Below, one piece after another: positions 1,227 to 63,858 of a DNA stretch of 64,000 nt (its first letter is position 1; every line of letters starts with the position of its first letter). Position numbers and translations under genes: made by a program. Source of the DNA: a virus; IMG/VR virus record IMGVR_UViG_3300042560_001229, positions 17,220 to 81,219 of that record; one strand, written 5' to 3'. Under the pieces are notes generated by a model. That model made no database searches. It was not told where the DNA came from and saw nothing but the letters and a program-made list of their open reading frames with translations.

Positions 1227-1306
1227 AAACTATTTTTGCAACAGTTGCAAATTCTTTTTGACAACGAATCACTCCTGTAAGAAACTGCTGCCTTATGAAA
1301 TCCACC
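1227..1306 (+). promoter_or_regulatory. Early-type promoter cassette (palindrome, TTGACA-ACGAATC, -10 GAAACT, leaderless ATGAAATCCACC)
   Basis: -35 at 1258-1263, 17-bp spacer, ATG at 1295; 1227-1271 is identical to 51841-51885. Confidence 0.8.
1235..1251. repeat. 17-bp palindromic dispersed repeat
   Basis: TTTGCAACAGTTGCAAA. Confidence 0.95.
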
Positions 1307-1579
1307 CGCCAACCCGACCCCGCTGAAATCCAACGCAAGCTCGATCTTGCCATTGCCTTCAAAGCCGCCTGCGCCCGTCTGCGGGCCACCCGCGCTCGCA
1401 CCCTGTCCGAGCAGCCGCCCCTCTCCACCTACGTCAACGGTGTGTATGACGACCGGAGCGAGGACTTCCACGCCCGCGAGAACGAAATCGAAAATGACCG
1501 CCGTGCTGCGGAGTTCGATGAAACCGTGGCCGAACGCGCCGCGCAGTTCAGTGAGCACGCCCTCCCTACCGCCTACTGA
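1295..1579 (+). CDS. Hypothetical early protein (MKST start)
   Basis: ORF begins at the cassette ATG. Confidence 0.75.
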   Translation: MKSTRQPDPAEIQRKLDLAIAFKAACARLRATRARTLSEQPPLSTYVNGVYDDRSEDFHARENEIENDRRAAEFDETVAERAAQFSEHALPTAY

Positions 1580-1580
1580 C

Positions 1581-1862
1581 ATGAGCTACCAGACTATCGA
1601 AGCAACCATGTATCTGGAGCGGGATGGGTATGAAGTGCAGGTGTCCCTCAGCGCCACGTTCATTCCCGGCTCACGCCAGACCCGCGAGGAGCCTGTCGAG
1701 GAAGCCTGCTTGGAGGATGTCACAGCCAAGTTGCCCGATGGACGGGAACTGACTTTGGAGGACGATGAGGAGGACGATGCCGAGCAAGCTCTGTGGCAAG
1801 CAGTCGAGGGTAAGCGCGAGGATGCACAGGTTCGTAACCACGTAAGCCGAAGGGACGAATAG
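1581..1862 (+). CDS. Hypothetical acidic protein
   Basis: ATG at 1581 just after the upstream stop; MSYQTIEA... Confidence 0.65.
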   Translation: MSYQTIEATMYLERDGYEVQVSLSATFIPGSRQTREEPVEEACLEDVTAKLPDGRELTLEDDEEDDAEQALWQAVEGKREDAQVRNHVSRRDE

Positions 1863-2434
1863 CATGAGCAGAAACGATCAAGAACTTCTGATATTCGCCA
1901 TCTACATGCTGGCTGTCGCCATCTGGACGGTCGCCTACTTCATACCGGCACCCTCGCTATGACCATCACCTATCTGAACGGAGAGAACAGGCAAGTGACC
2001 GAGCATCTGCCCTGCCGCACGGCTCTTGCCGCTGTGGAGTTGCTGAAAGCCGCAGGGAAGAATTTCAAGTATCTCGTGCGCTGTGAACCAGACGCACCCG
2101 CAGTGAAACCAAAAACAGAAAACCAACCGAAATGAAACAGTATCAAGACCACGACCCGATCAAGGACAAAGGCAAGGCAGTGCCGCATCCGAAACGTCCG
2201 ACCCATTACTCCTACCGGGGCCGGGGCTGCGGAGGCTCCCTCACCTTTCTGCGTTCGCAGATAGACAGTGCCACCCGGAAGGCGAACTCGCCCAAGGCGG
2301 TAGCTGATAGGGGCGGTCGTCTTGGAATCTTCGGCATCCTGATGGCCGTGGCCGCGTCTGTGAAATCCGCCGCACGCCGCCCTACTCAACGAGGACGCTA
2401 AGACCATGACACCTTACGAAGCACAGGAGGCCAA

Positions 2435-2704
2435 ATGACCATCTGGAAATACCCGCTGACCCTCACCGACGTTCAGGATGTGCGGATGCCCATTGGCTCG
2501 GAAATCCTCACGGTGCAGGTGCAGCACGCCAGCCTATGCCTGTGGGCGCTGGTGAATCAGAATGCCGGACGAGATGCCGGTGAGGTTCGCACAATCGAAA
2601 TCCACGGCACTGGCATCATAATGTCGGACGAGGAGCGTCGTTACATCGGCACCGCGCAGATGGCCGGTGGCGCTCTCGTCTGGCACGTTTTCGAGAGGCT
2701 ATGA
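2435..2704 (+). CDS. Conserved phage hypothetical protein
   Basis: MTIWKYPL..LWALV..GTG..YIGT..LVWHVFE pattern common in phages; GGAGG upstream. Confidence 0.75.
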   Translation: MTIWKYPLTLTDVQDVRMPIGSEILTVQVQHASLCLWALVNQNAGRDAGEVRTIEIHGTGIIMSDEERRYIGTAQMAGGALVWHVFERL

Positions 2705-2860
2705 AAACGATCACGAACATGAGGCAGTGCCCCAAAGGTCTGACCCGGCCTCAGCGCAAGGTGGTGAGCAGCATCCTCAGTCGCGTGCGGTTCAAGAAAG
2801 GCCGGGGTGTGGTGGTGCATTACTACCATCGGACTAGGGAAGTGCTCGCCCGCCCTCTAT

Positions 2861-2877
2861 TTTGAAACTGTTGCAAT
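2861..2877. repeat. 17-bp palindromic dispersed repeat
   Basis: TTTGAAACTGTTGCAAT, overlaps a stop and the next ATG. Confidence 0.9.
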
Positions 2878-3217
2878 GAGCACACCTACCAAAGAGCAAA
2901 TCAAAGACGGGAGGAAGTGCTGGCGTCCGAAGATGCCGGAGCTATCCAAGGCATGTGCGAGTTGTCCGTTCATGGAAGGGAACGATTCCGAGTTCGCCAA
3001 GATCATCGCCCGGCTCAGGCGGGTGAGTGTGCAGAACGTCCTCAAGTCCGACATCGAATATGCGCGGAGGAGTGTGAAACTGGACACTGTGCTGACCGGC
3101 AACTTCGCCTGCCATCACACCGCCTATGACTTGGAGAGCATGAAGCCCAAGCCGCAGACGGAGTTGCGCCAGTGCAAGGGAGCCGCTGACTGGTATCGCG
3201 CCGGAGGACAGATATGA
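2876..3217 (+). CDS. Cys-rich protein (DUF6283-like)
   Basis: CASCPF...FACH...CKGA; similar to 42313-42621. Confidence 0.6.
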   Translation: MSTPTKEQIKDGRKCWRPKMPELSKACASCPFMEGNDSEFAKIIARLRRVSVQNVLKSDIEYARRSVKLDTVLTGNFACHHTAYDLESMKPKPQTELRQCKGAADWYRAGGQI

Positions 3218-4800: not shown

Positions 4801-4892
4801 CCTCTTATGGGCCAACTATTTTGCAACTGTTGCAAAATATCTGTTGACGACGAATCGGTTTAGGCCCATATTGGTGGCATATGAAATCCACC
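4801..4892 (+). promoter_or_regulatory. Early-type promoter cassette
   Basis: Palindrome, TTGACG 4844-4849 then ACGAATC, CATATT 4867-4872, ATGAAATCCACC at 4881; near-copy at 63767-63858. Confidence 0.8.
4820..4836. repeat. 17-bp palindromic dispersed repeat
   Basis: TTTGCAACTGTTGCAAA. Confidence 0.95.
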
Positions 4893-6420: not shown

Positions 6421-7430
6421 TGATTGCCCGCCCCATGCTGGCCGAGACGCTGGAGAATGTCGCAGACATCCAGTTCCCGGTGCTCGCCACCGATAAGATT
6501 GATGGTCGCCGCAACCTCCTACTCCCACCCACCGAAGCCGGGAAGATGAGCCGCTGTGCCAGCCGTTCGCTGAAAGGGTTGAAGAATGACTTCACGCGGG
6601 AGTGGCTGGAGAGCTACCTCCCACCCGGCTTGGATGGGGAGTTGGTGGTGCTGACGCCCGATGGCCGCGTGGACGAGTTTCACGTTATCTCGTCGGCGTT
6701 CACTAATGACGGTGAGCCTGACTTCCGCTTCATGGTGTTCGATGACTTCCGTGGCGGGTTGCAGGAGCCATATCTGGAGAGAATGAAACGGCTGGAGAAA
6801 TCCCGGCTCCCATCTGGCAGGGTTATCAAGCTGCTTCCCACCCTCATTGAGAACGAGGAGGAACTGGACGCCTTTGAAGCCGCTGCCCTTGCCCGAGGGA
6901 ATGAAGGGATTATGATTCGCACGCCCCACTCACCTTACAAGGAGGGACGCAGCACGGTGCGCGAAGGTTGGCTGCTCAAGATCAAACGGTTCAAGGATGC
7001 GGAGGGCACTATCGTCGGAACCGTGGAGGGGATGCACAATGCGAATGAGGCCACGATCAACGAAGTAGGGCGCACGCAGCGTTCCACTTCCAAGGAGGGC
7101 AAGATTGGCAAGGGCCGAGTTGGTGCGCTGGTGGTCAAGCCGCTGGAGTTTGGCCCTCCTACCAATGACGACTGGCTGTATGTGCAGCAGAACGCTCATC
7201 GGATGAAGGCGGCAGTGCAGAGCCACCCGTATCTGTTTATGATGGGCACCGGAGCCATCACCGTAGGCGGGAACAACGTCCCGTTGTCCGAAGCGCACAC
7301 GATGCACAGACGGGTGGTGAAGTATAAGTTCCAGCCCATCGGCGTGAAGGTGAAGCCGCGTTTCCCGCAATGCCTCGGCTACCGGGACGCTGATGATATG
7401 GATGGCGAACAGCAAGGGAGGCTGTTATGA
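6420..7430 (+). CDS. lig: ATP-dependent DNA ligase
   Basis: KIDG adenylation motif, LDGEL, FMVFDD, EGIMIR, LLKIK, RFP OB-fold end. Confidence 0.93.
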   Translation: MIARPMLAETLENVADIQFPVLATDKIDGRRNLLLPPTEAGKMSRCASRSLKGLKNDFTREWLESYLPPGLDGELVVLTPDGRVDEFHVISSAFTNDGEPDFRFMVFDDFRGGLQEPYLERMKRLEKSRLPSGRVIKLLPTLIENEEELDAFEAAALARGNEGIMIRTPHSPYKEGRSTVREGWLLKIKRFKDAEGTIVGTVEGMHNANEATINEVGRTQRSTSKEGKIGKGRVGALVVKPLEFGPPTNDDWLYVQQNAHRMKAAVQSHPYLFMMGTGAITVGGNNVPLSEAHTMHRRVVKYKFQPIGVKVKPRFPQCLGYRDADDMDGEQQGRLL

Positions 7431-7432
7431 CT

Positions 7433-7818
7433 TTGGTGGTCAGTAGTAGCAACATGGTGCCCACGCGAGATGCTGGGACAGGGCGGTGGAATCTTCGCCT
7501 CATAGAAACAAGCGCGCTACTGGCCACCATCACTTTCAGTAGCAATGCTGAGGCTGACGGGCTGGCAGTATCCAGCCGAGGGCTGACGGCGAAAGCCTAT
7601 GTAGCCTGCCATAATCCTATACGGCCCTCGCAAAGGTGCAGTGTAGGCAGTGCCCTCCGTGTGCGCTGTAAAAGGGTGCAAACCCAACGCGGCCCTTTCG
7701 GGGTAGATGGATGCGGGTTCGATTCCCGCACGCTCCAGTTACGGGGCGGCTCGGTGCTACAAGACCTGACGGTGACATGCCGCAAGCATACCGGGTTCGA
7801 CTCCCGGCTACTCCACCC
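7433..7818 (+). ncRNA. Putative structured ncRNA with two tRNA/tmRNA-like T-arm and acceptor modules
   Basis: Several stems with GCAA/GAAA/UUCG loops; T-arms GCGGG-TTCGATT-CCCGC (7713-7729) and CCGGG-TTCGACT-CCCGG (7791-7807), each followed by a 7-nt acceptor strand and A. Confidence 0.65.
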
Positions 7819-7820
7819 CT

Positions 7821-7837
7821 TTTGAAACTGTTGCAAA
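7821..7837. repeat. 17-bp palindromic dispersed repeat
   Basis: TTTGAAACTGTTGCAAA. Confidence 0.95.
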
Positions 7838-7844: not shown

Positions 7845-8213
7845 ATGCCCGTAACGATTGTTGGTGTAACAGCCGGGGCGGTCATCACTTTCCTCTCCAC
7901 GGTGCAGAGGGAGGGTGAGCCTCGGCTGTATCGGGTGCGGTTGACCGTAATTGCGTTTGGTCAGACGGAACCTGACAAGGTGCTCGCACTGGCGGATGGC
8001 TTCATGTTTGGGGATGAGCAACTGATTCGAGTCGGCCCGAGACGCCTCCTACCGGAGCGTGTGAAGTCCAGAAACACTGACTTTGCCTCGGTGCTTTCCA
8101 ACTACATGCGGCTGGATGACATTGACGATGAATTGTCCTTGCCAGAATCCGCCCGCCAGTGGTATCGTCGCCAAGCAGTGAAACCCCGTAAAAGAAACCT
8201 CGAAATCCTATGA
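7845..8213 (+). CDS. Hypothetical protein with C-terminal RKRNLEIL
   Basis: ORF overlaps the groES start. Confidence 0.7.
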   Translation: MPVTIVGVTAGAVITFLSTVQREGEPRLYRVRLTVIAFGQTEPDKVLALADGFMFGDEQLIRVGPRRLLPERVKSRNTDFASVLSNYMRLDDIDDELSLPESARQWYRRQAVKPRKRNLEIL

Positions 8214-8476
8214 AAATGATCGGCAGTAAAGTCCTCGTCCGCATGAAGCCCCGCGCCACAGTCAGCGAAGGCGGCATCCATATCCCGGCAGTGAGCCAGA
8301 CCACGGAGTTGTGGGGCACGGTGCAGTGCGTCGGGGAGGGGGCGAAGGATTTGGTCATCGGGGATGAAGTGCTGATTGAGGCGCATCTCGGCACGCACTT
8401 CATCATGCGCGGCGAAGATCACATCATCATCGAAGCGGAGAAGATCAAGGCGAAGCGCGAGTTGCTTGCGGCGTGA
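8210..8476 (+). CDS. groES: GroES/Cpn10 co-chaperonin
   Basis: KVLVR..SEGGIHIP..GTVQCVGEG..GDEVL. Confidence 0.88.
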   Translation: MKMIGSKVLVRMKPRATVSEGGIHIPAVSQTTELWGTVQCVGEGAKDLVIGDEVLIEAHLGTHFIMRGEDHIIIEAEKIKAKRELLAA

Positions 8477-9358: not shown

Positions 9359-9556
9359 ATGGGTGTGCTCGTCAATCACTGGCCCACCCTCGCCCTAGTT
9401 GGATACTGCCTCGTTGGTCTGTCCATCTTCTCAGCTTACATCCGCTCGTCGTATGTAATGCTGAGAAGGTGGGAGGTAGTTCTGTTCGTCGTCTCCGGCC
9501 CGCTGGTCTGGCTGGTGGCAATTTTGAAACTGTTGCAAAGCAGGAGGGCACGGTGA
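9359..9556 (+). CDS. Small two-TM membrane protein
   Basis: Two hydrophobic segments. Confidence 0.55.
   Translation: MGVLVNHWPTLALVGYCLVGLSIFSAYIRSSYVMLRRWEVVLFVVSGPLVWLVAILKLLQSRRAR
9523..9539. repeat. 17-bp palindromic dispersed repeat (intragenic)
   Basis: TTTGAAACTGTTGCAAA. Confidence 0.95.
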
Positions 9557-11518: not shown

Positions 11519-14500
11519 GTGCCCTGCTCCCACCCGCACCATCGTCTGTCATCCAGCAGGGTGTTCTCCCTACTGAGGAAGTCCCATGCTCCCGAGGGGG
11601 GCTGGAACGCTGCGAACTACCACGGAGTCCACGCGGAGCGGCTGGTGCAGGATTTCATCAAAGTCCACAAGACCGCACAGGCGAGAGGCATCCGCTCGCT
11701 GACGGAGTATCTCAAGGCGAAGTTCAAGGAGTTGGTGAACATCGTCATTCAGGAAGTCACGGAGCGGAAGATTCGGCTCGGTCAGACGAAGGGTCTTGCA
11801 ACTGTTGCAAAAGCACTGGAGTTCACGGTGAATCCTGCCGGTGACAGCAATCTGTGGATGGAGGCCATTGCCGGTGCGATGCGGGACTACGATAAGGAAG
11901 TGATCGTGGAGATGCTGCCTCGGATGCAGAGCGTAGCCTCCGAAGTGTTTGGCAAGACCACGGTGCTGCTCGGCGGTGAGGTAGGGAAGGACGCTGCGAA
12001 CATTGTCCATGCTGAGATGAAAGACTTGGCCAAGCTGGTCACGCGCATCAATGAAACGACGCGCAACCAGATGGCGACGATCATCCGAGAAGGCATCGAA
12101 GCCGGTGACTCTGTGAGCGGGGTGGCACAACGGCTGCGGGATGCCCTTCCGCAAAAGCTGTGGCCGCGCATTCCCACCATTGCCCGCACGGAGATGGGCA
12201 GGGCTGCGGACAAGGGCAGTGCGCTGGCCATGATGAAGTCCGGTGTGGTGAAGACGGTCATGGTCATCGGCTGCAAGGCCATTGAGCCGGGGATTCCCAC
12301 TTATCATGGGGTGCCGACTTGCAACATCGAACACGTCCCGGTTGAGGACGCCGCGCTGCTGCAATTCCACATCAATCACACCGGGACGATTGTGCCGGAG
12401 TCGTTCTTCGATGATGACCGCGCACCCGCCTCCCTACCACCTTTGGATTCACCGGCAGATGAGTTGAAGCTGGCGCGTGGTGCGGAGGGCAGTTTGTCTT
12501 CAAGGCCGATTGAATTTGCCGGTGCGGAGGAGGCTGAGTTTCTGGCCAAGGAGTTGGCCGAGGATAACATCCTCATTCAGCCCACCGCGTTGAAGGCCAT
12601 GCAAAGTGGCTTCGGCATGTCGCCGGTCGCGCTGAGAAATGCCTTGATGGAGGATGCGGTGCCCAAGGATGGCTACCTTCCGGCGAAGATGATTATGACC
12701 CAGCAGGAGAAGGGTCTGTGGAGCATCCTGTCCAAGATTTGCCCGGTGAAACCCGGCAAGGCCGAAGGCGATGATGGATGCAACACTTTGGCGATGGTCT
12801 ATGACCTAAATGAGAAAGCGGTCGGGCAGGGCATCCACACCATGCACGAAACGATAAAGGCCAAGGCTGTTGGCAAGCAGGCGTTAGCCAACCATTTGGC
12901 CACGATGGATTCGCTCGGCATCAAGAAGATGAGTCTGGAGGCAAACATTGACAAAGGCGGGTTTGCATGGGCGCGTTACGGATTCGTGCCCACCGACCCG
13001 AACGGGCTGGCTGGGCAGTTGCTCAAGAAATACACGAGCGCGGTATTCGACTCCCTGCCTAAAGCCGATGCTAGTCATGTGTTGGGTCTTATCTCCCGGC
13101 TGACGATGGGTGATGCCAAGGCGGTGTGGGAGATCGCCGCTTTGAAAATGACCGGCCCCGGTGGGATGGGAATTGGCGATTGGTTGTTGCGCGGAACCAA
13201 GTGGCAGGCGCAACTCGATCTGACGGACAAGGTGGCCTACAAAATGTTCAAGAAGTATGTGACTGACAAGGGAGTGGCCTCTGCTGGTGTTGCGCTGCCG
13301 CCGAAGATTCTTCCTGCAATGGTGCCCAAGCCGCTGAGTGCCCCGGTAGTCTCTGCGGCACCCATCAGCATGTCCGGGGTGCAGTTCCCGACCATTGCGG
13401 AATTGAAGGATACAGGCACGCGCATCGGCGGAACTACTGGTGCCCGACTCATGGTGGACTCCAAGGGCAAGCGGTGGGTGCTCAAGGATGGCCGTGGGGC
13501 TGTTGGAACCATCACGGAGGAAGTTCACGCTGACAATGCTTACCGGGCGATGGGCGTGAATGTGCCGAACAGTATCCTGATGACCGAGGGTGGAGTGACG
13601 GTCAAAATCTCCGAGTTCATGGAGGGAGGGGTGACGCTGAACGACTACGCGCTCTCGGCCAGCAAGGGAGACATCGCGGCGATGTATGCCAAGATCAGGA
13701 AGGGCTTTGCCGCTGATGCGCTGCTGGGAAATTGGGACGTGATTGGCATGGACGCTGATAACATCCTCATTGTGAAAGGCGTCCCCTATCGGATTGATAA
13801 CGGTGGGTCGCTGCGCTACCGGGCGCAGGGTTCCCTCAAGGGAGCCGCGTGGAATGAGCATCCGGTGGAGTTGTGGACGATGCGTGGCGAACGCTTCTCA
13901 TCTGGTGCCGCTGCACAGGCCAAGAAGGTGTTCGGTGAAATCGGGGACAAGGCGGAACTGACCATTTATGATCTGGCACGGCAGATTGATGCCATTGATC
14001 GCAAGGCGTTGCTGGAGTCGCTGCCCGAGGAGTTGCGGGACACGGTGGGCAAGCGTCTGACCTCCCTAAAGTCCATCGCAAGAAAGGCCAAGGATTACGA
14101 AAAGGATGACTGGAATCATGGCAATACTGACCGTGTGACCTTTGGCATAATGGAGTTGCGAGAGGCAGGTATATCGAAGAAGCTGGAGAAAACACTGGAT
14201 TTTGCTAAGAGCAGGGGTGTTAGACGCGCTAGCTGGGAGATGACGGATGACGCAGGCAAGTCGTTTGGTGGTCTGCGGGACAAAGGTGGTGCCGGTCAGG
14301 AGTTTTGGGATTTGCTGAGAAAGAAGCATGGGCCGGAGGGCGTGGATGTCTTGCGTGCGTGGCACAATGCACAGGCTGGTGGTTCGTGGAGTCCTGAGTC
14401 CGTTGGCTTGAAACATTGGCTCACTAATCAGAGGCACGCCATCGCCGGGAAAGTTGAACGCTATTGGGGTCGTGGGAATATAACCACGGAGATGGCCGAG

Positions 14501-15459: not shown

Positions 15460-15852
15460 ATGTGGGTAGCCTCGAAATACGGTTTCTTCTCCATCGTGAA
15501 AAAGGACGGCGGCTGGCACATCCGCGCTCGCAAGGCGGCGGATTTGAAACTGTTGCAAAAAGCCGTGGGCAGCACGTTCGCCGGGGAGAAGATTCACCTG
15601 ACCCCGGATGCCGACTACTGCGCCCGCATCTTCATCACCGACCATTCGGACGGTCGCGGTGCGGTGCAGATTGACCGCATCATGTCCGCGCTGGGTGAGT
15701 CCGTGGACTACGGAAACTTCAAGAGCATGATCGCTGAGACTCCCGACCAGCAGGATAAGTTGCCCGCCTACCATCGCATGTGGAGTGCAATGTTTGACTT
15801 CCAGATGAGCATGGCATCGCGTAAGGTCAGGACATGGCTGAAAAGAATCTGA
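15460..15852 (+). CDS. Conserved phage hypothetical protein
   Basis: MWVASKYGFFSIV..IRAR..DY..R..DYGNFKS pattern; AAGGAGG upstream. Confidence 0.75.
   Translation: MWVASKYGFFSIVKKDGGWHIRARKAADLKLLQKAVGSTFAGEKIHLTPDADYCARIFITDHSDGRGAVQIDRIMSALGESVDYGNFKSMIAETPDQQDKLPAYHRMWSAMFDFQMSMASRKVRTWLKRI
15543..15559. repeat. 17-bp palindromic dispersed repeat (intragenic)
   Basis: TTTGAAACTGTTGCAAA. Confidence 0.95.
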
Positions 15853-16485: not shown

Positions 16486-16502
16486 TCTGCAACTGTTGCA
16501 AA
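16486..16502. repeat. 17-bp palindromic dispersed repeat
   Basis: TCTGCAACTGTTGCAAA. Confidence 0.9.
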
Positions 16503-51840: not shown

Positions 51841-51920
51841 AAACTATTTTTGCAACAGTTGCAAATTCTTTTTGACAACGAATCAATTCTGAGCCAGTTT
51901 TGGGCCTTATGAAATCCACC
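51841..51920 (+). promoter_or_regulatory. Early-type promoter cassette
   Basis: Palindrome 51849-51865, TTGACA-ACGAATC 51872, CAGTTT, ATGAAATCCACC 51909. Confidence 0.8.
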
Positions 51921-52571: not shown

Positions 52572-52608
52572 CAACGAATCAGTAACGTATTAGTCTTTCA
52601 CCATTATG
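52568..52608 (+). promoter_or_regulatory. Early-type promoter
   Basis: TTGACA-ACGAATC, TAGTCT, ATG at 52606. Confidence 0.75.
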
Positions 52609-53037
52609 AAAACCCGCACCCGCAGAAAACTCGACATGCCGACCCCCGAAGCTGACCTTGCTTACGCCAAGATTACGGAGTTGGCCATCACCACGTTCGT
52701 TGAGAACAAGTTGCAGAACGAACATAAGCGCAAATATGACAAGTCCCGCAAGGAGTTGCTCGGTCAGATGAAGGACTCTGGCAAGTCCACCCATCGTGCT
52801 GAGTATCGTGACGAGGACGGCAAGAGCATCATGCTGGTGGCCGAAATATCCACCCCGACCGGACAGGCCGTGGATGTGACCAAACTCCAGAAGCTCGTCA
52901 CGGAGAAGCAGTTCCTCGCCATCGTGGAAGCCTCGCAGAAGGCTGTCACGGACATCGTGGGCACCGCCACCCTCGCGCAGTGCCTCGTCCCCACCATCGG
53001 CACCGAGAACGTCAGCGTGAAGGTCGCCAAACTTTGA
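52606..53037 (+). CDS. Hypothetical protein (N-terminal RTRRKLDM)
   Basis: Begins at the promoter ATG. Confidence 0.7.
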   Translation: MKTRTRRKLDMPTPEADLAYAKITELAITTFVENKLQNEHKRKYDKSRKELLGQMKDSGKSTHRAEYRDEDGKSIMLVAEISTPTGQAVDVTKLQKLVTEKQFLAIVEASQKAVTDIVGTATLAQCLVPTIGTENVSVKVAKL

Positions 53038-53049
53038 AACTGTTGCAAA
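53033..53049. repeat. 17-bp palindromic dispersed repeat
   Basis: TTTGAAACTGTTGCAAA supplies a stop and abuts the next ATG. Confidence 0.95.
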
Positions 53050-54027: not shown

Positions 54028-55001
54028 GGCTGGCCAAGGTGCTGGAGATTGCGGATGCGGCTGGCTTCACCATTGTCAGTCGGGAGGCCAACGGCGGCGG
54101 GTGGATACCGATGCTCTGTCCCTTTGCTCCCTACCTTCACGAGCGCGGTGTTGACCGCAATCCATCCTTCTTCATCAAGGTGAACAACGCTGGTGTGTCC
54201 GCGTGCCACTGCTTTACGTGCAAGGAGAAGGGACGCATCTCCACCATCCTTCGCAAGCTGGAGTTCCATAGCGGAGACAGTTACTCGAAGCTGATTATCC
54301 GCGCCGACATGGAGGAGATTCCCGAGGAGTTTGGTGAGTTCGAGGAAGTTGGCGCAACGCGGGAAAGGCGCAAGCCGGTGGAGGAGGCCATCTTCTTCAA
54401 TATGTATCCGCTGGCTTATGAGGACAGGGCGTGCGCCGCCTATCTTCGGGGCCGGGGCATCAGTCCGACTACCGCCACCAAGCTGGGTCTGCGTTTCGAT
54501 GATACGGAGAAGCGGGTGCTGTTTCCAGTCAAGGGTAGGGACGGTGAGTTGTATGGCTACTCCGGCAGGGCGATTACGGACACCGGGCACTCGCGGCACC
54601 GCGACTATGGCTTCACCAAGGAACTGTGCCTGCTGGGTGAGCATTTGTTCCAACCCGGCAAGCCCGCCTTTGTGGTGGAGGGTCTGTTCGCCTTCGCACA
54701 TCTGGTGGAGATAGGAGCGCGTGGCCTCTGCAATCCGCTGGCTTCCCTTGGCTCTACCATCAGCGGGCCGCAGCGTGATTTGCTGGAGGACTTGGATGTG
54801 CCGGTGTATCTCTGCTTCGACCCTGACGCGGCAGGTGACTTGGGCACCTACGGCAAGGACGGCAAAGGCGGTGCGGTGGCTTTCCTCAAGGAGCATGTGC
54901 CGCTGCGGATTCCACTCTACCCCGAAGGGCTGGAGGACATTGACGCGATAACTTTGAAACAGTTGCAACGCATGGTGACGATGGACTATGAAACCCCTTG
55001 A
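54024..55001 (+). CDS. DNA primase (Zn finger plus TOPRIM)
   Basis: CPF..H..CHCFTC, YLRGRGI, GYSGRA, VVEG, FDPDAAG. Confidence 0.88.
   Translation: MRLAKVLEIADAAGFTIVSREANGGGWIPMLCPFAPYLHERGVDRNPSFFIKVNNAGVSACHCFTCKEKGRISTILRKLEFHSGDSYSKLIIRADMEEIPEEFGEFEEVGATRERRKPVEEAIFFNMYPLAYEDRACAAYLRGRGISPTTATKLGLRFDDTEKRVLFPVKGRDGELYGYSGRAITDTGHSRHRDYGFTKELCLLGEHLFQPGKPAFVVEGLFAFAHLVEIGARGLCNPLASLGSTISGPQRDLLEDLDVPVYLCFDPDAAGDLGTYGKDGKGGAVAFLKEHVPLRIPLYPEGLEDIDAITLKQLQRMVTMDYETP
54953..54969. repeat. 17-bp palindromic dispersed repeat (intragenic, upstream of a promoter)
   Basis: TTTGAAACAGTTGCAAC. Confidence 0.85.
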
Positions 55002-55052: not shown

Positions 55053-55424
55053 AGCAACCCGCACAGGGATGAAGTCGTGACCTACGTGATGAACAGATTC
55101 GCGCAGGGCAAGGGTGCCGAGTTGGTGCTGCACCGCAAGGGCCAGCCCAAGCGGTTGCTCCTCATACCGTCCCCGGTGTTCAGTGAAAGTGCCGTGTGCG
55201 GTCTGGCCATCGCTTTGGAGGACGAGGGGTTCCACTTTTGGTCGGGCTTGAACCCGCTGAATGGATTCGACTTGTGCGCCTCTGGATTTTCGCTAAAGGT
55301 AGCGGATGCCGTCGCAGTGCTGGTGAGGGACTTGTTCCCCTACCGACTTCGCCGGAAACTACAACGCTCGCAAGAGCACAAACCAATGGGCGTAAGCCCG
55401 CAAATAGAAGACAGACAACAATGA
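55050..55424 (+). CDS. Hypothetical protein
   Basis: ORF between primase and SSB. Confidence 0.55.
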   Translation: MSNPHRDEVVTYVMNRFAQGKGAELVLHRKGQPKRLLLIPSPVFSESAVCGLAIALEDEGFHFWSGLNPLNGFDLCASGFSLKVADAVAVLVRDLFPYRLRRKLQRSQEHKPMGVSPQIEDRQQ

Positions 55425-56359
55425 GTGAACCAGTAAGACAACGACGCCGTGCAATCACGGCAGCAGGAGCAGGGGCGGCGGCGACCGCCTCCGGGCAATC
55501 CGGTGGAACGTGGGGCCGCAGGGGTTCCGCCATCGCAGCGGAAGCAGCCAAGGCGCAGGCCAGTGCTGAACGCAAACGCAGTGGAGCAGGCAGTGCGCTT
55601 CGCTTCTACGTCAAGGGAGGGGATGATTGCGAAATCATCATCCTCGATCATTCGATTGAGGACGGCCTCGCCTTCTACGAGCACAACCTGCAAGGCGCGG
55701 ACGGCAAGTGGGACATCTATGAGCCGTGCATTAAGGACTTCGCGCAGTGCCCGATCTGTGCCCGGTTCAAGGAGTCCTCCTACGTGCTGATGCTGACCTG
55801 CTTGGTGCTGAAACCCTTCACCACCAAAAAGGGCGTAGTCGTTCCGCATAGCAAAATGTTGCTGCCGGTTCGCATCACGCAGTTTGACAAGTTCCGCGAT
55901 CTGGAGGCATCGGCCAAGAGCGAAGGCGGTTCCTTGCGGGGCATGTATCTGATTATGAAACGCTCCAAGAGCGACAGCAAAGCGGCCCGCATTGGGGAGC
56001 CTGCCATGCTCGAAGGCGGCAAACTCTACGATCTGATTCCCGAAGCTGAGTTGGTTCGGGACTATGGCCACAAGGAAGTGCGTTCGGAGGATGGGACGAA
56101 GGTGTTCCGTCCCGCCAACTTCGACATCACGCCGTATGACTACGACGAGTTGTTCCCGAAGCCTGATGTTAAGGACATCCAAACCCGCTACGGTGCGGAC
56201 ATGCGCCCGCCCGCTGGTTCCGCCCGCGAAGTGGCGGCTGAGTTCGAGGAGAACGAGCAGAAGGAGCAGCCGGAGGAAACCGCCAAGCCTGCCGCTACGG
56301 TTCGCACTCGGCGCAAGGCGGCACCGACCGCTGACAGCAATCCCTTCCCGGAGGATTGA
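55421..56359 (+). CDS. Single-stranded DNA-binding protein (gp32-like)
   Basis: YEH..C..CPIC zinc motif, acidic tail NPFPED, replication context. Confidence 0.65.
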   Translation: MSEPVRQRRRAITAAGAGAAATASGQSGGTWGRRGSAIAAEAAKAQASAERKRSGAGSALRFYVKGGDDCEIIILDHSIEDGLAFYEHNLQGADGKWDIYEPCIKDFAQCPICARFKESSYVLMLTCLVLKPFTTKKGVVVPHSKMLLPVRITQFDKFRDLEASAKSEGGSLRGMYLIMKRSKSDSKAARIGEPAMLEGGKLYDLIPEAELVRDYGHKEVRSEDGTKVFRPANFDITPYDYDELFPKPDVKDIQTRYGADMRPPAGSAREVAAEFEENEQKEQPEETAKPAATVRTRRKAAPTADSNPFPED

Positions 56360-56371: not shown

Positions 56372-57778
56372 ATGAGTAATGCCCTTCACGGAAACTCCGC
56401 AGTGCTGTCCAGCCTGCTTTGGTTGCCCTTTGCCATGTTTGACCGTGAAACCGGAGACAGGCTGAGGAAGCGCCTAACTGTGACCGTGAAGGGCTATCAT
56501 GCGGATGACGAGGACAAGGTGATTAAGGGCTACGTGCTGAATCAGGAAACCCGGCAGATTGGCGTCCCTGTTCACTTTGGGATGCAACTGTTGCAAAGTC
56601 AGCCACGCGACGTTGTAGTGAATCTGGCCAACGGCTTCCCTATCTCTGTCCAGAAGCGACCAGACCCCAACCATCCAAGCGCCTCGCCCGCGCAGGGCTT
56701 GCTGATGAAGCAGGTAGTGCGGCACGCCTCCACAAATCCGGTGACACTGATAAAGGCACCGACCGGCAGTGGGAAGACAGTGGTAGCGTTGAACACCATT
56801 GCCGAGTTGGGACGAACCGCCTTGGTGATTGTCGGCACCAAGGTTTTGGCCCGTCAGTGGGAAAAGGAGGCCATGCTGCATCTTGGACTGACGGCTGACG
56901 AGATAGGCCATGTGGAGGAAGGCAAGTGCGTGTTTGAGGGCAAGAAGCTGGTTGTTGCCGTGGCGTGCAATTTGACGCAGAAAAACTTTAGTGAGTGGTT
57001 CTACGACTATTTTGGAACGGTGGTGTGGGACGAGGCGCACAGGCTTGGAGCAAAGCACTTCTCACGCACACTGACCATGTTTGCTGCCAAGACGCGCATC
57101 GCAATGACCGCCACCCCGACCCGACGCGATGGGGCCGAGCAGCTTTTTCTGGATTACTTCGGCGACCCCTCCGTGGAGGGCAGTGCTGATGCGCTGGAGT
57201 GCGATGTGCGAGTGGTCAATCGAAACACGGTGTTGAAGCAGTGGAAGTATTTGTCGGTGCCGTCCATCGTTTCCAAATTGACAACGGATAAGTTTCGTAA
57301 TATGGATATAGCCATGCTCATTCAGACGCTCTATCGCAGTGGCCGCACGACGCTGGTGTTATCCGACCGGATTCACCAGTTGCACGTCCTTATGGAGATG
57401 TGCGCCGAGGGTGAGAAGGCCATCCCCAAGGAAGTCATGGGATTGTTTGCCCGCCAGCGCGAAGTGGCCGGTGGCAAGCGCAAGCAAGTGACGAACGCTG
57501 AACTGGATGAAGTGAAGGCAAATGCCAAGGTGGTGTTCTCCACCTACGGCATGGGCAAGGAAGGTCTGGACATCCCGCGACTGGATGCCGGAATTGACGC
57601 CACTCCCCGAGCAGACGGTGTGCAGGCCATTGGCCGCATCCGCCGACCCTTTCCAAACAAGAAACGTCCTGTGTGGTTCACCATTCGGGATAACGGAATC
57701 CCGCCACTGATGGGCTACACCAAATCCCGGCTACGGGAGTATAAAGAAAGTAACGTGAACGTAATTGACCATGAGTAA
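56372..57778 (+). CDS. SF2 DEAH helicase (UvsW/XPB-like)
   Basis: APTGSGKT, DEAH, TATP.R.DG, EGLDIP.LD, QAIGRIRR. Confidence 0.92.
   Translation: MSNALHGNSAVLSSLLWLPFAMFDRETGDRLRKRLTVTVKGYHADDEDKVIKGYVLNQETRQIGVPVHFGMQLLQSQPRDVVVNLANGFPISVQKRPDPNHPSASPAQGLLMKQVVRHASTNPVTLIKAPTGSGKTVVALNTIAELGRTALVIVGTKVLARQWEKEAMLHLGLTADEIGHVEEGKCVFEGKKLVVAVACNLTQKNFSEWFYDYFGTVVWDEAHRLGAKHFSRTLTMFAAKTRIAMTATPTRRDGAEQLFLDYFGDPSVEGSADALECDVRVVNRNTVLKQWKYLSVPSIVSKLTTDKFRNMDIAMLIQTLYRSGRTTLVLSDRIHQLHVLMEMCAEGEKAIPKEVMGLFARQREVAGGKRKQVTNAELDEVKANAKVVFSTYGMGKEGLDIPRLDAGIDATPRADGVQAIGRIRRPFPNKKRPVWFTIRDNGIPPLMGYTKSRLREYKESNVNVIDHE
56581..56597. repeat. 17-bp palindromic dispersed repeat (intragenic)
   Basis: GATGCAACTGTTGCAAA. 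Confidence 0.85.
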
Positions 57779-58454
57779 GAAGCCCGCATCGCAAACAAGG
57801 AAGTGGTGGGTGGAGCGCAATGCTCGCCGCCGCGAACGCTACGCCAGTGACCCGACTTACAAGGCACAGGTGAACAAGACCAACCGGGGAAGTTACCGCA
57901 GGGTCAGCCCGGTGACACCCCACACAGCACTTCGGGGTTCCGATTTGTCCGCGCAAGGGACAACCCGCAAGGTGCAGACGCCTGCCGGTGAGCAGAAGAT
58001 GAAGACCTTCTCCGTTGAGGAGATGGCCACTGTCCTCGGCGGCTACCATACGGTTGTGCTGTATCGCTGGATTCGTGCTGAACGCTTTCCCAAGCCGACG
58101 CTGGCGACGGTGCCCGATGGCATGGCATCACAGATGGTCTATTGCTTCAACGATGCCCGAGTGCTGGCCAGAGTGATGGCCGAGCACCAGCGCGAGAAGG
58201 CCTACTTCCATTCCTCGGACTTTGAAACTGTTGCAAAACTGTTCGAGGCCGCAGCGCAACCAATTCCGAAAGCCACGCAGTCCGCGCTGGCGATCATTAA
58301 GAGCAAGAGCAAACCAACCAACACCGATGCAGACACCAACAAGAGTAAGACAGAGAACCAAGCAGCAGGGCAACGAAGGGTCAGTAACCAAAGCCGTGGA
58401 GCGAAAAGTCTCCGGCAAGGTAACGTCCAGCGAAAGCACAACGGAAAAGTTTAA
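57765..58454 (+). CDS. Putative DNA-binding protein (MerR/excisionase-like HTH)
   Basis: FSVEEMATVLG..VLYRWIRAERFPKP. Confidence 0.55.
   Translation: MTMSKKPASQTRKWWVERNARRRERYASDPTYKAQVNKTNRGSYRRVSPVTPHTALRGSDLSAQGTTRKVQTPAGEQKMKTFSVEEMATVLGGYHTVVLYRWIRAERFPKPTLATVPDGMASQMVYCFNDARVLARVMAEHQREKAYFHSSDFETVAKLFEAAAQPIPKATQSALAIIKSKSKPTNTDADTNKSKTENQAAGQRRVSNQSRGAKSLRQGNVQRKHNGKV
58221..58237. repeat. 17-bp palindromic dispersed repeat (intragenic)
   Basis: TTTGAAACTGTTGCAAA. Confidence 0.95.
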
Positions 58455-60272: not shown

Positions 60273-60275
60273 CCT

Positions 60276-60635: not shown

Positions 60636-61495
60636 ATCTGTTAAACCGACTGGAAGGCAAAGCCAGAAGACGCAGCACGCAGGAGGATTCGCTGCCTGCC
60701 TTTGCCAAGGAGTTCCTAACCGAGATTATTCGTGGGCAGGATGAGCAGCCCGAGGATGCCCGAGGGGTTGGCGGGTATGTGCATGTGACCGCACTGCTGG
60801 ACTTCTGCCCCCGCCTGTGGAGCCTTGTGGCCGAGGATACCAGCAACCGGCCCAACCTGCCCAAGAGTGCTGACCGTGTAATGTGGGCCATTGGTCGTGC
60901 GCTGGAGCATCACGTTAGGACGCAGATCATTGCGGCGGTTGGACGCAAGGCCGTCTATGGTTTGTGGAAGTGCCCCTGTGGTGGAACTGAGGTTATGGGT
61001 CTTGGCAACTCGGCAACTTGCAACAGTTGCAAAAAAGAGCCTTCCATCTTCCATGAGGTTCCGGTGTTTGACCATGAGTTGCAGATTACCGGCAGTCCCG
61101 ACTTGCTGCTGGTGCATGGTGGCGGCTTCCGCGTGGTGGAAATCAAAAGCATGAACAAGAAGGACTTCGACCTTCTGCAAGCCCCGGTGCCAAACCATGT
61201 GTTCCAAGTGAACAGCTACCGGAAGATGCTGCTGGCCACTGGTGCGAAGGTCTGCGAGGAGGCGATCATCATGTATGTGGCCAAGGACTACTCGTTCAAG
61301 TCCCCCTATAAGGAGTTCCATGTTCTGCCGGATGACCAGATGTTGGCCATCAATTCCATGTTCGAGCAGGTGCGTCTGATGCGGCAGAGCGGCAGTGCTG
61401 GCCAACTCCCTCCAAAGCTGCCCGTTTGTGCGAACATTGATTCGCCAATGGCTCGACGTTGCCCGCAAGCTGTCAACTGCTTTTCCCGCCGATGA
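60632..61495 (+). CDS. Cas4-like PD-(D/E)XK exonuclease
   Basis: CPR, G..H, GSPD, EIKS, Q..Y, terminal C..CP..C. Confidence 0.78.
   Translation: MNLLNRLEGKARRRSTQEDSLPAFAKEFLTEIIRGQDEQPEDARGVGGYVHVTALLDFCPRLWSLVAEDTSNRPNLPKSADRVMWAIGRALEHHVRTQIIAAVGRKAVYGLWKCPCGGTEVMGLGNSATCNSCKKEPSIFHEVPVFDHELQITGSPDLLLVHGGGFRVVEIKSMNKKDFDLLQAPVPNHVFQVNSYRKMLLATGAKVCEEAIIMYVAKDYSFKSPYKEFHVLPDDQMLAINSMFEQVRLMRQSGSAGQLPPKLPVCANIDSPMARRCPQAVNCFSRR
61017..61033. repeat. 17-bp palindromic dispersed repeat (intragenic)
   Basis: CTTGCAACAGTTGCAAA, encodes CNSCK. Confidence 0.9.
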
Positions 61496-62215: not shown

Positions 62216-62227
62216 AAATGAACTATT

Positions 62228-62298
62228 TTTGCAACTGTTGCAAAAATTGCTTGCCCACGAAACGGTTCTGGCCCAAGTTGCCGTTAATGAAATCCACC
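62228..62298 (+). promoter_or_regulatory. Early-type promoter cassette with an 18-aa MKST uORF
   Basis: Palindrome 62228-62244, TTGCCC-ACGAAAC, CAAGTT, ATGAAATCCACC 62287 (stop at 62343). Confidence 0.75.
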
Positions 62299-62356
62299 AC
62301 CATTCAGGTGTCTGGACGATTCAGACACGCAAATCGCAAATAGAACCAATCGCAAC

Positions 62357-63544
62357 ATGAGCAAGAGCACCAAAGCGGCCAAGGCCGCACCCGCAAAATC
62401 CACCAAGGCCGCACCCGCTGCTGCCTCCACCGAAACCACCTTTGCCCCGAAAGAGGGCGACACGGTGACGTTCAAGGGCTACGCCCAACTCGAAGACGGG
62501 CAGGAGCCTATCTTCACCGCAGGCGAGCAAGTCCGCATCGTAACGGTCGTGGACGCCGAAACCTTCCAGTGCGTCAGTCTGACTGACCCGAAGAAGACCG
62601 ATTCGGCTTTCGACACCGAAATCGCTCCGGCGTCCGACACTGCCGCTGCCGAAACCACGGCCCCGGCCAATGGTGGCAAGGTCAAGTTGAAGAAAGGCGC
62701 AGCCCCGGCCCCTGCCGACGCCCCTCCGGCTGAGGGCAAGAAGCCCAAGTCCACGAAGGAGAAGGCCAAGGCCAAAGCCAAGGCCGAGAAGAAGGAGGAC
62801 GAACTCCAGCCGCTCGCGCCCGAGGCGTATGACGCCGAAACCCGCAAGGTCATCAAGACCGATGCCTCCGCGCTCAAGGCCGCGAAGTCTCTGGCCGAAA
62901 AGATCAAGGAGACGTTCTGGACGCTCGGCGGCGTCCTCTCCTTCATCCGGCGTCACAAGTCGTATGCGACCATCGAAGTGGATGGCGTCACTCCCTACTC
63001 CGGCAAGCAAGGCTTCGCTCAGTATGTCGAAGCTGAACTGGACACGCACTACCGGAAGGCCATGTATTACATCGAGATTTACGAAACCTTCGCCCCGCTG
63101 GGTATCAGCGAGGAGCAGGTGCTCGCCCTCGGATGGAGCAAGGCCAAGGAACTGTGCGGCGTCGTCAACGCCAAGAACGTGGAGAAGTGGCTCAAGAAAG
63201 CCAACGAGCTTGGCCGTGAAGACTTGCAGGCGGAAATCAAATCCGTTCGAGTCAAGGCTGGCGACACCGGCACCACCGACCCCGGTGAGACGGCCAAGGC
63301 GACCACGTTCAAGTTCCGCCTGTTTGAAGATCAGGGGCAAGTCGTGCAGGAGGCACTCAAAGCGGCCTCGGCGGTCATCGGTGACGACGACCTGAACAAG
63401 GCGTTCGCGCACATCGCAACGGAGTGGCTGACCCTCCAAGGTGGTTCTGCCAAGGTTGGAATTGAGCAGGCGTTTGCCGCGCTGGAAAACTCCTACGGCC
63501 TCGCGGAAGTCTCCGGTTACGCCCGGATGCAGTATAAGAAGTAA
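62357..63544 (+). CDS. Probably highly expressed DNA-binding protein (Ala/Lys-rich N-terminus, DUF3102/ParB-HTH-like core)
   Basis: KAAKAAPAK repeats; FWTLGGVL..F.QYVEAEL..YRKAMYYIEIY..LGWSKAKEL; strong codon bias. Confidence 0.6.
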   Translation: MSKSTKAAKAAPAKSTKAAPAAASTETTFAPKEGDTVTFKGYAQLEDGQEPIFTAGEQVRIVTVVDAETFQCVSLTDPKKTDSAFDTEIAPASDTAAAETTAPANGGKVKLKKGAAPAPADAPPAEGKKPKSTKEKAKAKAKAEKKEDELQPLAPEAYDAETRKVIKTDASALKAAKSLAEKIKETFWTLGGVLSFIRRHKSYATIEVDGVTPYSGKQGFAQYVEAELDTHYRKAMYYIEIYETFAPLGISEEQVLALGWSKAKELCGVVNAKNVEKWLKKANELGREDLQAEIKSVRVKAGDTGTTDPGETAKATTFKFRLFEDQGQVVQEALKAASAVIGDDDLNKAFAHIATEWLTLQGGSAKVGIEQAFAALENSYGLAEVSGYARMQYKK

Positions 63545-63570
63545 GTCCGACTTACCACCGGCACAGGAAT

Positions 63571-63602
63571 GCCCTCACCGTCTTCGGCGGTGGGGGCTTT
63601 TT
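63571..63602 (+). terminator. Rho-independent terminator
   Basis: GCCCTCACCG-TCTTCGG-CGGTGGGGGC followed by TTTTT. Confidence 0.85.
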
Positions 63603-63766
63603 CCTGCCCTGATTCCTCCCGGCTTACGACCCAAAAAGGCCACCAAGAAGGGACTCACCAGTGGCCATAAACGGGCTATACGTTGCGCTGACCCCATTCC
63701 TCACCACTCACCTTCCCCGCTCCACAAACGAAGGTTTCCCGAGATTCTCACGACCCGAATTTTTCG

Positions 63767-63858
63767 CCTCTTATGGGCAAACTTTTTGCACTTTGTTGCA
63801 AAATAATCGTTGACGACGAATCGGTTCTGCCCCATATTGGTGGCATATGAAATCCATC
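63767..63858 (+). promoter_or_regulatory. Early-type promoter cassette
   Basis: Variant palindrome 63785-63802, TTGACG-ACGAATC 63810, CATATT, ATGAAATCCATC 63847 (29-aa ORF ending at 63936). Confidence 0.8.

Follow-up and report, generated by a model that had tools for sequence, protein, structure and literature searches.

Dispersed 17-bp palindromes under selection in a family of uncultivated freshwater phages, and a candidate MerR-type protein that may bind them

Short DNA sites repeated throughout a replicon are known from several systems, and here we describe such an element, a 17-bp palindrome, in a phage genome from lake water. The window, i.e., the whole stretch of 64,000 nucleotides that was analysed, corresponds to bases 17220–81219 of the complete 81,219-bp IMG/VR virus record IMGVR_UViG_3300042560_001229 (referred to as G000), which carries a 127-bp direct terminal repeat. 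The operators of KorB on plasmid RK2 are palindromes with A/T-rich ends, present in a dozen copies, some adjacent to promoters and some far from them, by which one protein controls the replicon; KorB is a ParB-family CTPase with a helix-turn-helix. In L5-like (Cluster A) phages, 20–30 operators and stoperators per genome serve one phage protein; a minority of them lie in promoters, the stoperators are found mostly in short intergenic gaps, and the consensus is lineage-specific and covaries with the protein (PMC6550527). The closest description is that of the Cluster O mycobacteriophages (Corndog and its relatives), the ~70-kb genomes of which hold 31–37 copies of the 17-bp dyad TGTTCGG-NNN-CCGAACA, a repeat of unexplained function for which a dimeric binder was predicted (PMC4351075). 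Some MerR-type proteins have also to be mentioned. TnrA/GlnR, of MerR type, bind 17-bp inverted repeats (TGTNAN7TNACA, Bacillus) and activate or repress by position (PMC4475385). The MerR-like gp36 of D29 represses phage genes in a lytic phage (PMC12266134), and RacA of Bacillus subtilis, a MerR-like winged-helix protein, binds the palindromic ram consensus in 25 chromosomal regions (PMC4914108). A first-pass annotation of the window, made from the sequence alone, had likened its palindrome to L5 stoperators and KorB operators, and both analogies proved apt.

The palindrome of G000 reads TTTGCAAC-N-GTTGCAAA. With at most three mismatches it occurs 28 times in the window, against 0.25 copies expected from shuffles; the exact form TTTGMAAC-N-GTTGCAAA accounts for 16 sites against 0 expected, nine of them fully symmetric and seven with a GAAAC half-site (GAAAC variants). 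The complete genome holds 37 sites and one 18-bp variant. All 29 sites of the first-pass annotation are real: 28 are 17-mers at the positions it had reported (three mismatches or fewer), and the variant at 63785 is the 18-bp form. With 37 sites against 0–0.25 expected, its view that the sites are not due to chance is upheld. They have the form expected for one dimeric sequence-specific protein. Twelve sites of G000 are perfect, 11 of which are intergenic, and a weak symmetry reaches two bases further out on each side (aT-TTTG...CAAA-At). Non-coding DNA is touched by 20 of 36 sites compared with 13% of random 17-mers (p = 2e-9), and in the related genome G001, which has a palindrome of its own, 30 of 45 sites are at non-coding positions or gene edges (p = 2e-12). 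The spacing of the sites in G000 is more even than random (coefficient of variation 0.74 vs 0.96, P = 0.05). Many sites fill stop-to-start gaps or precede start codons by 0–17 nt, and others supply stop codons, as had been noticed before. The intragenic sites (15 of 36) encode the peptides reported earlier (LATVAK/FETVAK, LQQLQ/LKLLQ and CNSCK), and all three frames are used, though unevenly: nine sites are read in frame 2, five in frame 0 and one in frame 1. Thirteen of the 15 are located within the first 30% or the last 20% of the gene.

Selection on the sites was followed in sister lineages, as no suitably diverged relative of G000 is at hand for a synonymous-site test. The related genomes G010 and G006 were aligned over 19.2 kb at 15.8% divergence. 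The aligned blocks include 11 sites, and all of their 154 arm positions are identical (Fisher p = 6e-12); the three central positions vary as much as the background does (18%). In the eight intragenic sites of this pair, 0 of 34 third-codon positions of the arms differ, compared with 33% elsewhere (p = 3e-6); intragenic arms are thus constrained at synonymous sites. For a second pair, G004 and G005, the arms differ at 2.7% against a background of 8.1% (p = 0.005). Orthologues do not share the peptides that the G000 sites encode (LATVAK, LQQLQ and others), and the frame-1 site makes use of a conserved CxxC. Some site positions are common to G000 and G001, each with its own sequence: upstream of the capsid gene (in G006 too), after three other genes, and in the helicase, where the palindrome at residue ~70 is read as G-M-Q-L-L-Q in G000 and as G-L-K-F-F-Q in G001. 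Evidently, the palindromes are DNA-level elements whose arms are under strong purifying selection. The earlier statement that selection acts on the DNA is borne out by the arms and the third-codon positions of the G010/G006 pair.

The relation of the sites to promoters was analysed in both G000 and G001. In G000, ~23 copies of a promoter cassette were recognised, all on the + strand, with the pattern TTGAC-N3-GAAWC and a weak -10 box (sAAGyT) after a 17-bp spacer. With this weak box the promoters were detected solely via their own cassette pattern, and a consensus promoter and terminator scan of G000 remained at chance level. The ATG lies 37 nt from the start of the -35 box, and therefore leaderless transcripts are predicted; many of these predicted mRNAs start with M-K-S. 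The conserved GAAWC inside the spacer could be the site of a second protein. The -35 boxes of the cassettes in the window are located as follows, seven more cassettes being found to the left of it.

First eight in the window, + strand: 1258, 4844, 6086, 35347, 36763, 37284, 38747, 39256
Last eight in the window, + strand: 42661, 45035, 48893, 51872, 52568, 54998, 62251, 63810

A palindrome is present upstream of 15 of the ~23 cassettes, 13 times at 6–9 bp from the -35 box and twice at 20 and 28 bp. The first-pass count of about eight copies at 6–8 bp agrees with the eight or nine found in the window. Given the 17-bp spacer, the centres of these promoter sites are at about -50 to -53. Seven or eight cassettes have no palindrome upstream, and three such promoters have a site 135–465 bp downstream. 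G001 has nine promoters of the form TTTACA-N17-TATTCT, and its own palindrome lies 5–8 bp upstream of seven of them. The promoter geometry is thus conserved between G000 and G001 while the palindrome and promoter sequences both differ. A contact with RNA polymerase is suggested by the 6–9 bp distance to the -35 box, which two diverged genomes have kept. About 60% of the G000 sites (~23) are at no recognisable promoter, and the same is true for ~37 sites of G001. The sites of the window are listed below.

1235–1251: perfect, between genes; followed after 6 bp by TTGACA (1258), the -35 box of a leaderless cassette
2861–2877: GAAAC variant; its TGA (site positions 3–5) stops the open reading frame (ORF) 2701–2865, and an ATG overlaps the site end
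4820–4836: perfect; 7 bp upstream of the -35 box (4844)
7821–7837: GAAAC variant; its TGA closes the 142-codon open frame 7427–7825
9523–9539: GAAAC variant; 13 nt 5' of the called start 9553, in frame as FETVAK if the start is 9469
11795–11811: intragenic, residue 93 of the 1165-aa head-morphogenesis gene; LATVAK, peptide not kept in orthologues
15543–15559: GAAAC variant, intragenic (LKLLQ); within the first 21% of the gene
16486–16502: intergenic; stop codon 5 nt before, ATG 8 nt after
23030–23046: degenerate GAAAC variant; its TGA is the stop of 22720–23034, ATG 1 nt past the site
24978–24994: perfect; right behind a stop codon, 7 bp before TTGACT and 5' of the major capsid gene, position kept in G001 and G006
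27398–27414: perfect; fills exactly a stop-to-start gap (stop 27397, ATG 27416)
34077–34093: GAAAC variant, intragenic (IETVAN)
35322–35338: GAAAC variant, C in the centre; the -35 box (35347) follows after 8 bp
36738–36754: GAAAC variant; its TGA is the stop of 36506–36742, 8 bp upstream of the -35 box (36763)
38723–38739: perfect; 7 bp upstream of the -35 box (38747)
42624–42640: GAAAC variant, located where a gene ends; the -35 box (42661) follows after 20 bp
45170–45186: intragenic (LQQLH); 135 bp downstream of a palindrome-less promoter
46131–46147: intragenic (KLQQLQD) in the conserved gene 45556–46266; peptide not kept in orthologues
46772–46788: perfect, intragenic; stop codon 12 codons on
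47305–47321: intragenic (VATVAI); close to the gene end
49220–49236: intragenic, DNA polymerase residue 97 (LQQLQ); peptide not kept in orthologues
51849–51865: perfect; 12 nt past the DNA polymerase stop, 6 bp upstream of the -35 box (51872)
53033–53049: GAAAC variant; gives the TGA stop of 52606–53037 and overlaps the start of the next gene
54953–54969: intragenic, end of a primase-like gene (LKQLQ); the -35 box (54998) follows after 28 bp
56581–56597: intragenic, helicase residue 70 (MQLLQ); the aligned position in G001 carries the G001 palindrome (LKFFQ)
58221–58237: GAAAC variant (FETVAK); within the gene of the candidate binder
61017–61033: sole frame-1 site (CNSCK); on the conserved CxxC of a PD-(D/E)XK nuclease
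62228–62244: perfect; 6 bp upstream of the -35-like TTGCCC (62251)
63785–63802: 18-bp variant TTTGCAC-TTT-GTTGCAAA; 7 bp upstream of the -35 box (63810)

The site had been described as polarised with transcription, without any reversed GAAAC copy. The absence of reversed copies is correct inside the window and does not extend to the whole genome. There, 13 copies have GAAAC on the left, and two or three, situated in the 17 kb left of the window, have it on the right. Most of this polarity arises from coding, as TGA stops are provided by the GAAAC arm. Seven forward copies out of 13 close an open frame of 93–228 codons with the TGA at their positions 3–5, and as all G000 genes are on one strand, only the forward orientation can supply this stop. 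Without the stop-supplying copies, the forward to reverse ratio becomes 6:2, which is not significant. The centre base of the symmetric sites is T in 12 and A in 10 cases. Read along the strand that carries the GAAAC arm, T comes next in 14 of 16 copies, whichever way the site points; this preference is a strand-symmetric property of the duplex. The canonical motif of G001 itself starts with TTTGA, and nine G001 sites donate a stop codon. The proposed polarity is therefore largely explained by stop supply and fails in the rest of the genome. One of the open frames in question, 7427–7825 (132–142 codons, ending at the TGA within the 7821 palindrome), was rejected by a codon-usage gene caller, and ARAGORN and Rfam gave no match for it.

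About 20 contigs of one family were gathered from IMG/VR with the capsid, portal and RecA proteins. Their protein identity to G000 is 40–57% and their GC contents range from 41% to 63%. At least 10 related lake-phage lineages have their own version of the palindrome, in which the outer TTTG/CAAA is constant and positions 5–8, with their mirror positions, are lineage-specific.

G001 (88 kb, complete): TTTGAAAA-S-TTTTCAAA, 45–47 copies
G013 (88 kb, complete): TTTGACCG-W-CGGTCAAA, 23 copies
G011 (90 kb, complete): TTTGCAM-NNN-KTGCAAA, 19 copies
G006 (78 kb) and G010 (fragment): TTTGCAA-NNN-TTGCAAA with free centre, 28 and 12 copies
G007 (75 kb): TTTGCA-CGATCT-TGCAAA (18 bp), 14 copies
G014 (74 kb): TTTGCACG-type, 12 copies
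G002 (fragment): TTTGAAG-NNN-CTTCAAA, 8 copies
G009 (fragment): TTTGAA-N5-TTCAAA, 10 copies
G012 (88 kb): TGAACC-SS-GGTTCA, 5 copies in 21 kb
G003 (45% GC): motif identical to that of G000, 4 copies in 11 kb

Hybrid sites, which combine a TTTGCA with a TTTGAA arm, were seen repeatedly in G011, G014 and G015 and, at position 6, in G013. Because such hybrids recur in several lineages, the half-sites are taken to be picked independently from an allowed set. Two protein subunits that read two major grooves ~10 bp apart would behave in this way, and the free centre in G006 and the one-base longer spacer in G007 and in the 63785 variant fit the same picture. The 18-bp form of G007 means that the half-site spacing can change by one bp within the family. 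This form, TTTGCA-C-GATC-T-TGCAAA, is slightly asymmetric with a GATC core, and occurs 10 times in one orientation and four times in the other (e.g., G007 3010–3027). In G006, on the reverse strand, a ~100-bp module is found four times (reverse-complement coordinates 8838, 14745, 63872 and 75578), in which a palindrome is accompanied by one to three additional TTTGCAA half-sites and followed by a conserved block; it looks like a larger regulatory cassette. The highest density was seen in G004 and G005, 14-kb IMG/VR fragments that are 94% identical, with 9–10 copies of TTTGCAA-YNR-TTGCAAA per 10 kb and an additional repeated CTGAAAGGGA motif. In these 14 kb, no protein detectably common with G000 and no homologue of the winged-helix protein described below was found; the two fragments may represent an independent system, or else early regions of family members that are not conserved.

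Three proteins had been put forward as binders, and the one at 57765–58454 is the best candidate. Its gene, 57810–58454 on the + strand, lies between the helicase and RecA genes and was found there in all 10 palindrome-bearing genomes examined, with syntenic homologues in G001, G006, G007, G011, G012, G013, G014, G015 and G018. The 214-aa product, which stands out among the proteins common to G000 and its near-complete relatives, is very basic (38 K+R vs 18 D+E) and carries a MerR/excisionase-type helix-turn-helix sequence pattern, with a winged helix at residues ~63–151. Its N-terminal part is long and basic, with a KRGRP AT-hook-like motif in most homologues, and no sensor domain is present. 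A four-member profile searched against the PDB gave the MerR-type DNA-binding domain of CarA (E = 0.006), followed more weakly by CarH and LitR. For the AlphaFold2 model (pLDDT 77), the 11 best structural matches in VIA-align were all MerR-family DNA-binding domains (Z 4.8–6.3, ~72 residues, rmsd ~3 Å), with RacA, TipAL, SoxR and BmrR among the top ones and GlnR, TnrA, excisionases and BldC ranking lower. The winged-helix family is restricted to these phages, forming 14 clusters, all unnamed, among 5.8 billion proteins. In two related contigs without palindromes, the helicase is followed directly by the RecA region and no winged-helix gene lies between them. From these sequence and model comparisons, we regard the 57810–58454 product as a candidate binder of the palindrome with a chance slightly short of even.

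The other two proposals found no support. The 62357–63544 product had no meaningful PDB profile match and no evidence of DNA binding, and that of 35847–36473 showed weak zinc-ribbon matches only and lacks conservation in the palindrome-bearing relatives. Three further products were set aside: 45556–46266 (no meaningful PDB profile match, poor AlphaFold2 model with pLDDT 67 and pTM 0.28), 43417–43788 (no meaningful PDB profile match) and 8210–8476, which is conserved in every fragment but is a GroES-like chaperonin. The second candidate binder, as judged from sequence, is a ParB-like protein encoded left of the window, at genome 12043–12834. It matches phrog_620 by an N-terminal domain (E = 8e-23) and recurs in G001, G002, G007, G010, G011, G013 and G014; no helix-turn-helix was detected in it by Pfam and PDB sequence searches, both of which came back empty.

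Taken together, it is very probable that the palindromes are protein-binding DNA sites maintained by selection, and rather probable that the binder is encoded by the phages. That control of transcription is the main role of the sites appears as probable as its opposite. The full proposal, for which the balance is likewise even, is that the palindrome is the duplex operator of one phage-encoded dimeric protein, most likely the predicted MerR-type product of 57810–58454; binding by this product, and the direction and timing of control, are what we infer. A protein dimer would recognise two TTTG(C/A)A half-sites one helical turn apart, and the winged-helix protein and its ~38 sites would co-evolve. 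At promoters, the dimer would be centred at about -51, facing the side of the helix to which -41.5 and -61.5 also belong, and could contact RNA polymerase, activating or blocking it. Away from promoters, at the ~60% of sites found at gene junctions or near gene ends, it would most likely be a roadblock to the elongating polymerase or an architectural anchor that bridges DNA, as stoperators do in L5-like phages. A more speculative extension, which we hold to be rather unlikely, is self-marking: the protein would coat or bridge only DNA with the ~40-site code of its own lineage, thereby coordinating transcription with replication and packaging and discriminating its own genome from that of the host or of co-infecting relatives, so that a switch of the inner 4 bp would create incompatibility groups. 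If true, such groups of virulent phages would be the lytic-phage counterpart of the immunity groups of temperate phages.

Several points weigh against the operator proposal. The palindrome-less contigs represent one lineage with two fragments (36% and 22% complete), and hence the correlated absence of sites and gene is weak evidence. Differences in the recognition helix among the lineages follow phylogeny and are inseparable from it. The structural matches are modest (Z ~6), the MerR sequence match is weak, and the ParB-like protein is also found in most family members. Promoter control cannot account for the whole function of the sites, as seven or eight cassettes have no site and ~23 sites have no recognisable promoter. 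Canonical MerR operators are located in the -35/-10 spacer, whereas the promoter sites of G000 precede the -35 box, mostly by 6–9 bp, and its spacer measures 17 bp. At TnrA-activated promoters, the box is centred ~50 bp upstream of the start. A TnrA/GlnR-like mode with the box upstream of the promoter fits G000 better than the canonical MerR spacer operator.

The gene content of G000 bears on the remaining explanations. All credible genes are on the + strand and the GC content is 57.6%. The virion and packaging proteins comprise portal, prohead protease, major capsid, tape measure and terminase-like proteins; those of replication are a family-A DNA polymerase, a DnaB-like helicase, a primase, a second helicase, a ligase and RNase H. 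Recombination-type proteins are RecA-like, a gp32-like zinc single-strand-binding protein, a Holliday-junction resolvase and a PD-(D/E)XK nuclease, and a type IB topoisomerase and a GroES-like chaperonin are encoded additionally. The single-strand-binding assignment concerns a conserved 312-aa protein (55421–56359) that is not recognised by Pfam and has an H...C...C..C motif resembling the zinc site of T4 gp32; it is probably the phage single-strand DNA-binding protein. The topoisomerase (16814–18277, PF01028, E = 5e-19) lies within the head-assembly gene block; G001 has a homologue at another place, and none is present in G006 or G007. No tyrosine or serine integrase (PF00589, PF00239) matched in the complete genome. 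Among the matches listed, which cover 25 of 42 Pfam families, there was no phage RNA polymerase family and no ParA-type partition family, nor, among the Pfam and PHROG matches of the same scope, a CI/Cro-type repressor. In the 17 kb left of the window, at genome 12043–16380, the ParB-like protein is followed by two TET-associated glycosyltransferases (TAGT, PF20691) and two UDP-galactopyranose mutases (Glf, PF03275), immediately 5' of the terminase genes, which extend into the window at 1–1102. The glycosyltransferase/mutase module, not kept in G001, is likely a DNA sugar-hypermodification module. The idea that the palindrome is a target of DNA modification was rejected, as the TAGT/Glf genes are not conserved in the family and the G001 motif is without a GC or CG step.

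The G000 phage was found solely in lake-water metagenomes, as DNA contigs, and a megablast of 20 kb against 50,697 deposited phage records returned no match; none of them is a close relative. Four sequencing runs gave near-identical fragments without informative variants. Public assemblies of the phage from other lake samples break or show small insertions exactly at palindrome-promoter modules (51841–51870, 62247); these irregularities seem to stem from the assembly of a dispersed repeat and not from real variation.

An alternative that we consider unlikely, though the best placed of the rivals, is genome organisation, in which a protein loads at the sites to compact, anchor, partition, protect or hand over DNA for packaging or modification. 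The protein could be the ParB-like one, as KorB or ParB at parS, or the winged-helix protein, as RacA at ram sites. The even distribution of the sites genome-wide, including 30 kb of structural genes with few promoters, the ~60% of sites away from promoters, and the recurrence of the ParB-like N-terminal domain protein in seven relatives agree with it. The KorB operator is a similar A/T-flanked palindrome, and RacA, a MerR-like winged-helix chromosome anchor, is among the structural matches of the candidate (PMC4914108). Nevertheless, the ParB-like gene does not accompany the sites in every member, as it was not found in G006 (89% complete) with its 28 sites, and the protein is without a detected helix-turn-helix. 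The fixed 6–9 bp to the -35 box points to RNA polymerase contact instead, and with no integrase and no ParA-type family among the matches listed, nothing suggests a need to segregate.

Binding of the sites by a host protein seems improbable. Here the phages would be adapted to a global regulator or nucleoid protein of the host, and differing hosts would lead to differing inner bases. The phage-encoded binder is so far a candidate only, and the outer TTTG/CAAA is invariant across phages of 41–63% GC, as a conserved host factor would need. On the other side, G000 (58% GC) and G003 (45% GC) have the same motif while phages of similar GC differ, the inner bases differ among close relatives, and a predicted family-specific DNA-binding protein co-occurs with the sites. 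Moreover, among the matches listed for the exact G000 17-mer in 185,579 species genomes (596 Gb), scattered single copies in diverse taxa, at about the chance number, were found, which speaks against a host binder and equally against a common host repeat or DNA uptake sequence, raised as an alternative in the first-pass annotation and rejected here. The most copies on one bacterial contig among these matches is two, in a Haliscomenobacter sp. metagenome-assembled genome (3.9 kb contig); this contig shows no protein similarity to G000, and phage DNA may have been binned there, or the pair of copies may be due to chance.

A hairpin in RNA or single-stranded DNA, acting as terminator, processing site or translational operator at gene starts, is very improbable. 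Canonical copies do fold into a 7–10 bp stem (-4.7 to -8 kcal/mol), many copies lie 0–17 nt before start codons, i.e., in the place of a ribosome-binding site, and intrinsic terminators in G000 are not above chance in the scan. The 13–16 GAAAC copies, a third of the G000 sites, do not fold at all (0 kcal/mol), and they are retained in spite of a mid-stem mismatch, which is A-G or C-T and never a G-U wobble pair. The stems are A/U-rich and no U-run follows the sites. Intragenic sites would terminate or cleave essential messages, and the free mixing of half-sites is what protein contacts predict. An RNA hairpin or terminator element was therefore rejected, no Rfam family having been found either; tRNA/tmRNA and Rfam scans of the window gave no match. 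Just as improbable are recombination linkers, short common sequences enabling module swaps among related phages: the sites are at gene borders, G000 encodes the recombination-type proteins named above and a Cluster O gene insertion is flanked by the 17-bp repeat (PMC4351075), but the ends of the aligned blocks in G004/G005 and G010/G006 are mostly not at sites, recombination needs neither dyad symmetry nor a free central spacer, and the fixed distance to the -35 box is left unaccounted for.

The operator proposal can now be compared with the known systems. RacA shares with the candidate the MerR-like winged helix and the palindromic site. The ram site is GC-rich, near the chromosome origin, and serves pole anchoring via a DivIVA-binding coiled coil, which is absent in the candidate. 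Unlike KorB, the ParB-like protein of G000 shows the N-terminal domain only and is missing from palindrome-rich G006. TnrA/GlnR resemble the G000 case in the 17-bp inverted repeat, read mainly via its outer bases, and in some intragenic sites (PMC4475385); they are host regulators with tens of sites in 4 Mb, whereas G000 has one site per 2 kb of phage genome, and the candidate differs from them in its long basic N-terminal part and in having no sensor domain. With the L5-like phages, the family has in common sites at promoters as well as at non-promoter junctions and a lineage-specific consensus. The L5 stoperators are, however, 13 bp, asymmetric, oriented with transcription and bound by the immunity repressor of a temperate phage; the G000 sites are symmetric, their orientation is not significant once stop codons are put aside, and G000 is without integrase.

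The greatest likeness is to Cluster O, and that the site was not recognised in the first-pass annotation is fair for its sequence only, as its kind has been published (17-bp dyad, >30 copies, non-temperate Cluster O, PMC4351075). Both have 17 bp, dyad symmetry and more than 30 dispersed copies, many intergenic and about a third in genes, and both have no integrase (no lysogeny in Cluster O), sigma-70/SigA-like promoters starting at the first codon and a ParB-domain protein (PMC4351075). G000 thus belongs to the same descriptive class, i.e., a 17-bp inverted repeat in at least 30 copies, non-temperate, with mixed intergenic and intragenic sites, the centre being free in sister lineages. The phages, hosts and sequence are unrelated; the motif differs and the megablast came back empty, so that neither common descent nor a common motif is found. 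The G000 case is therefore not categorically new. What is new is an unrelated, uncultivated freshwater phage family with dispersed palindromes, codes that differ by lineage within an unchanging outer half-site, a spacing that shifts between 17 and 18 bp, and quantitative proof of selection on the sites together with a conserved promoter geometry and a named candidate binder. For dispersed palindromes in non-temperate phages, a kind familiar since Cluster O, the G000 family provides a natural experiment: at least 10 lineages with the same outer half-site, different inner bases and a spacing of 17 or 18 bp. With measurable arm selection, a conserved promoter distance and one concrete candidate, two questions become directly testable, namely how one protein and ~40 sites run the genome of a lytic phage, and how the specificity of a protein and of dozens of sites changes jointly without loss of function. 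The binder/site pairs could also serve as orthogonal operator-regulator parts. For Cluster O, no link to promoter position, no lineage variants and no candidate binder were reported; the G000 family has all three, together with the evidence of selection.

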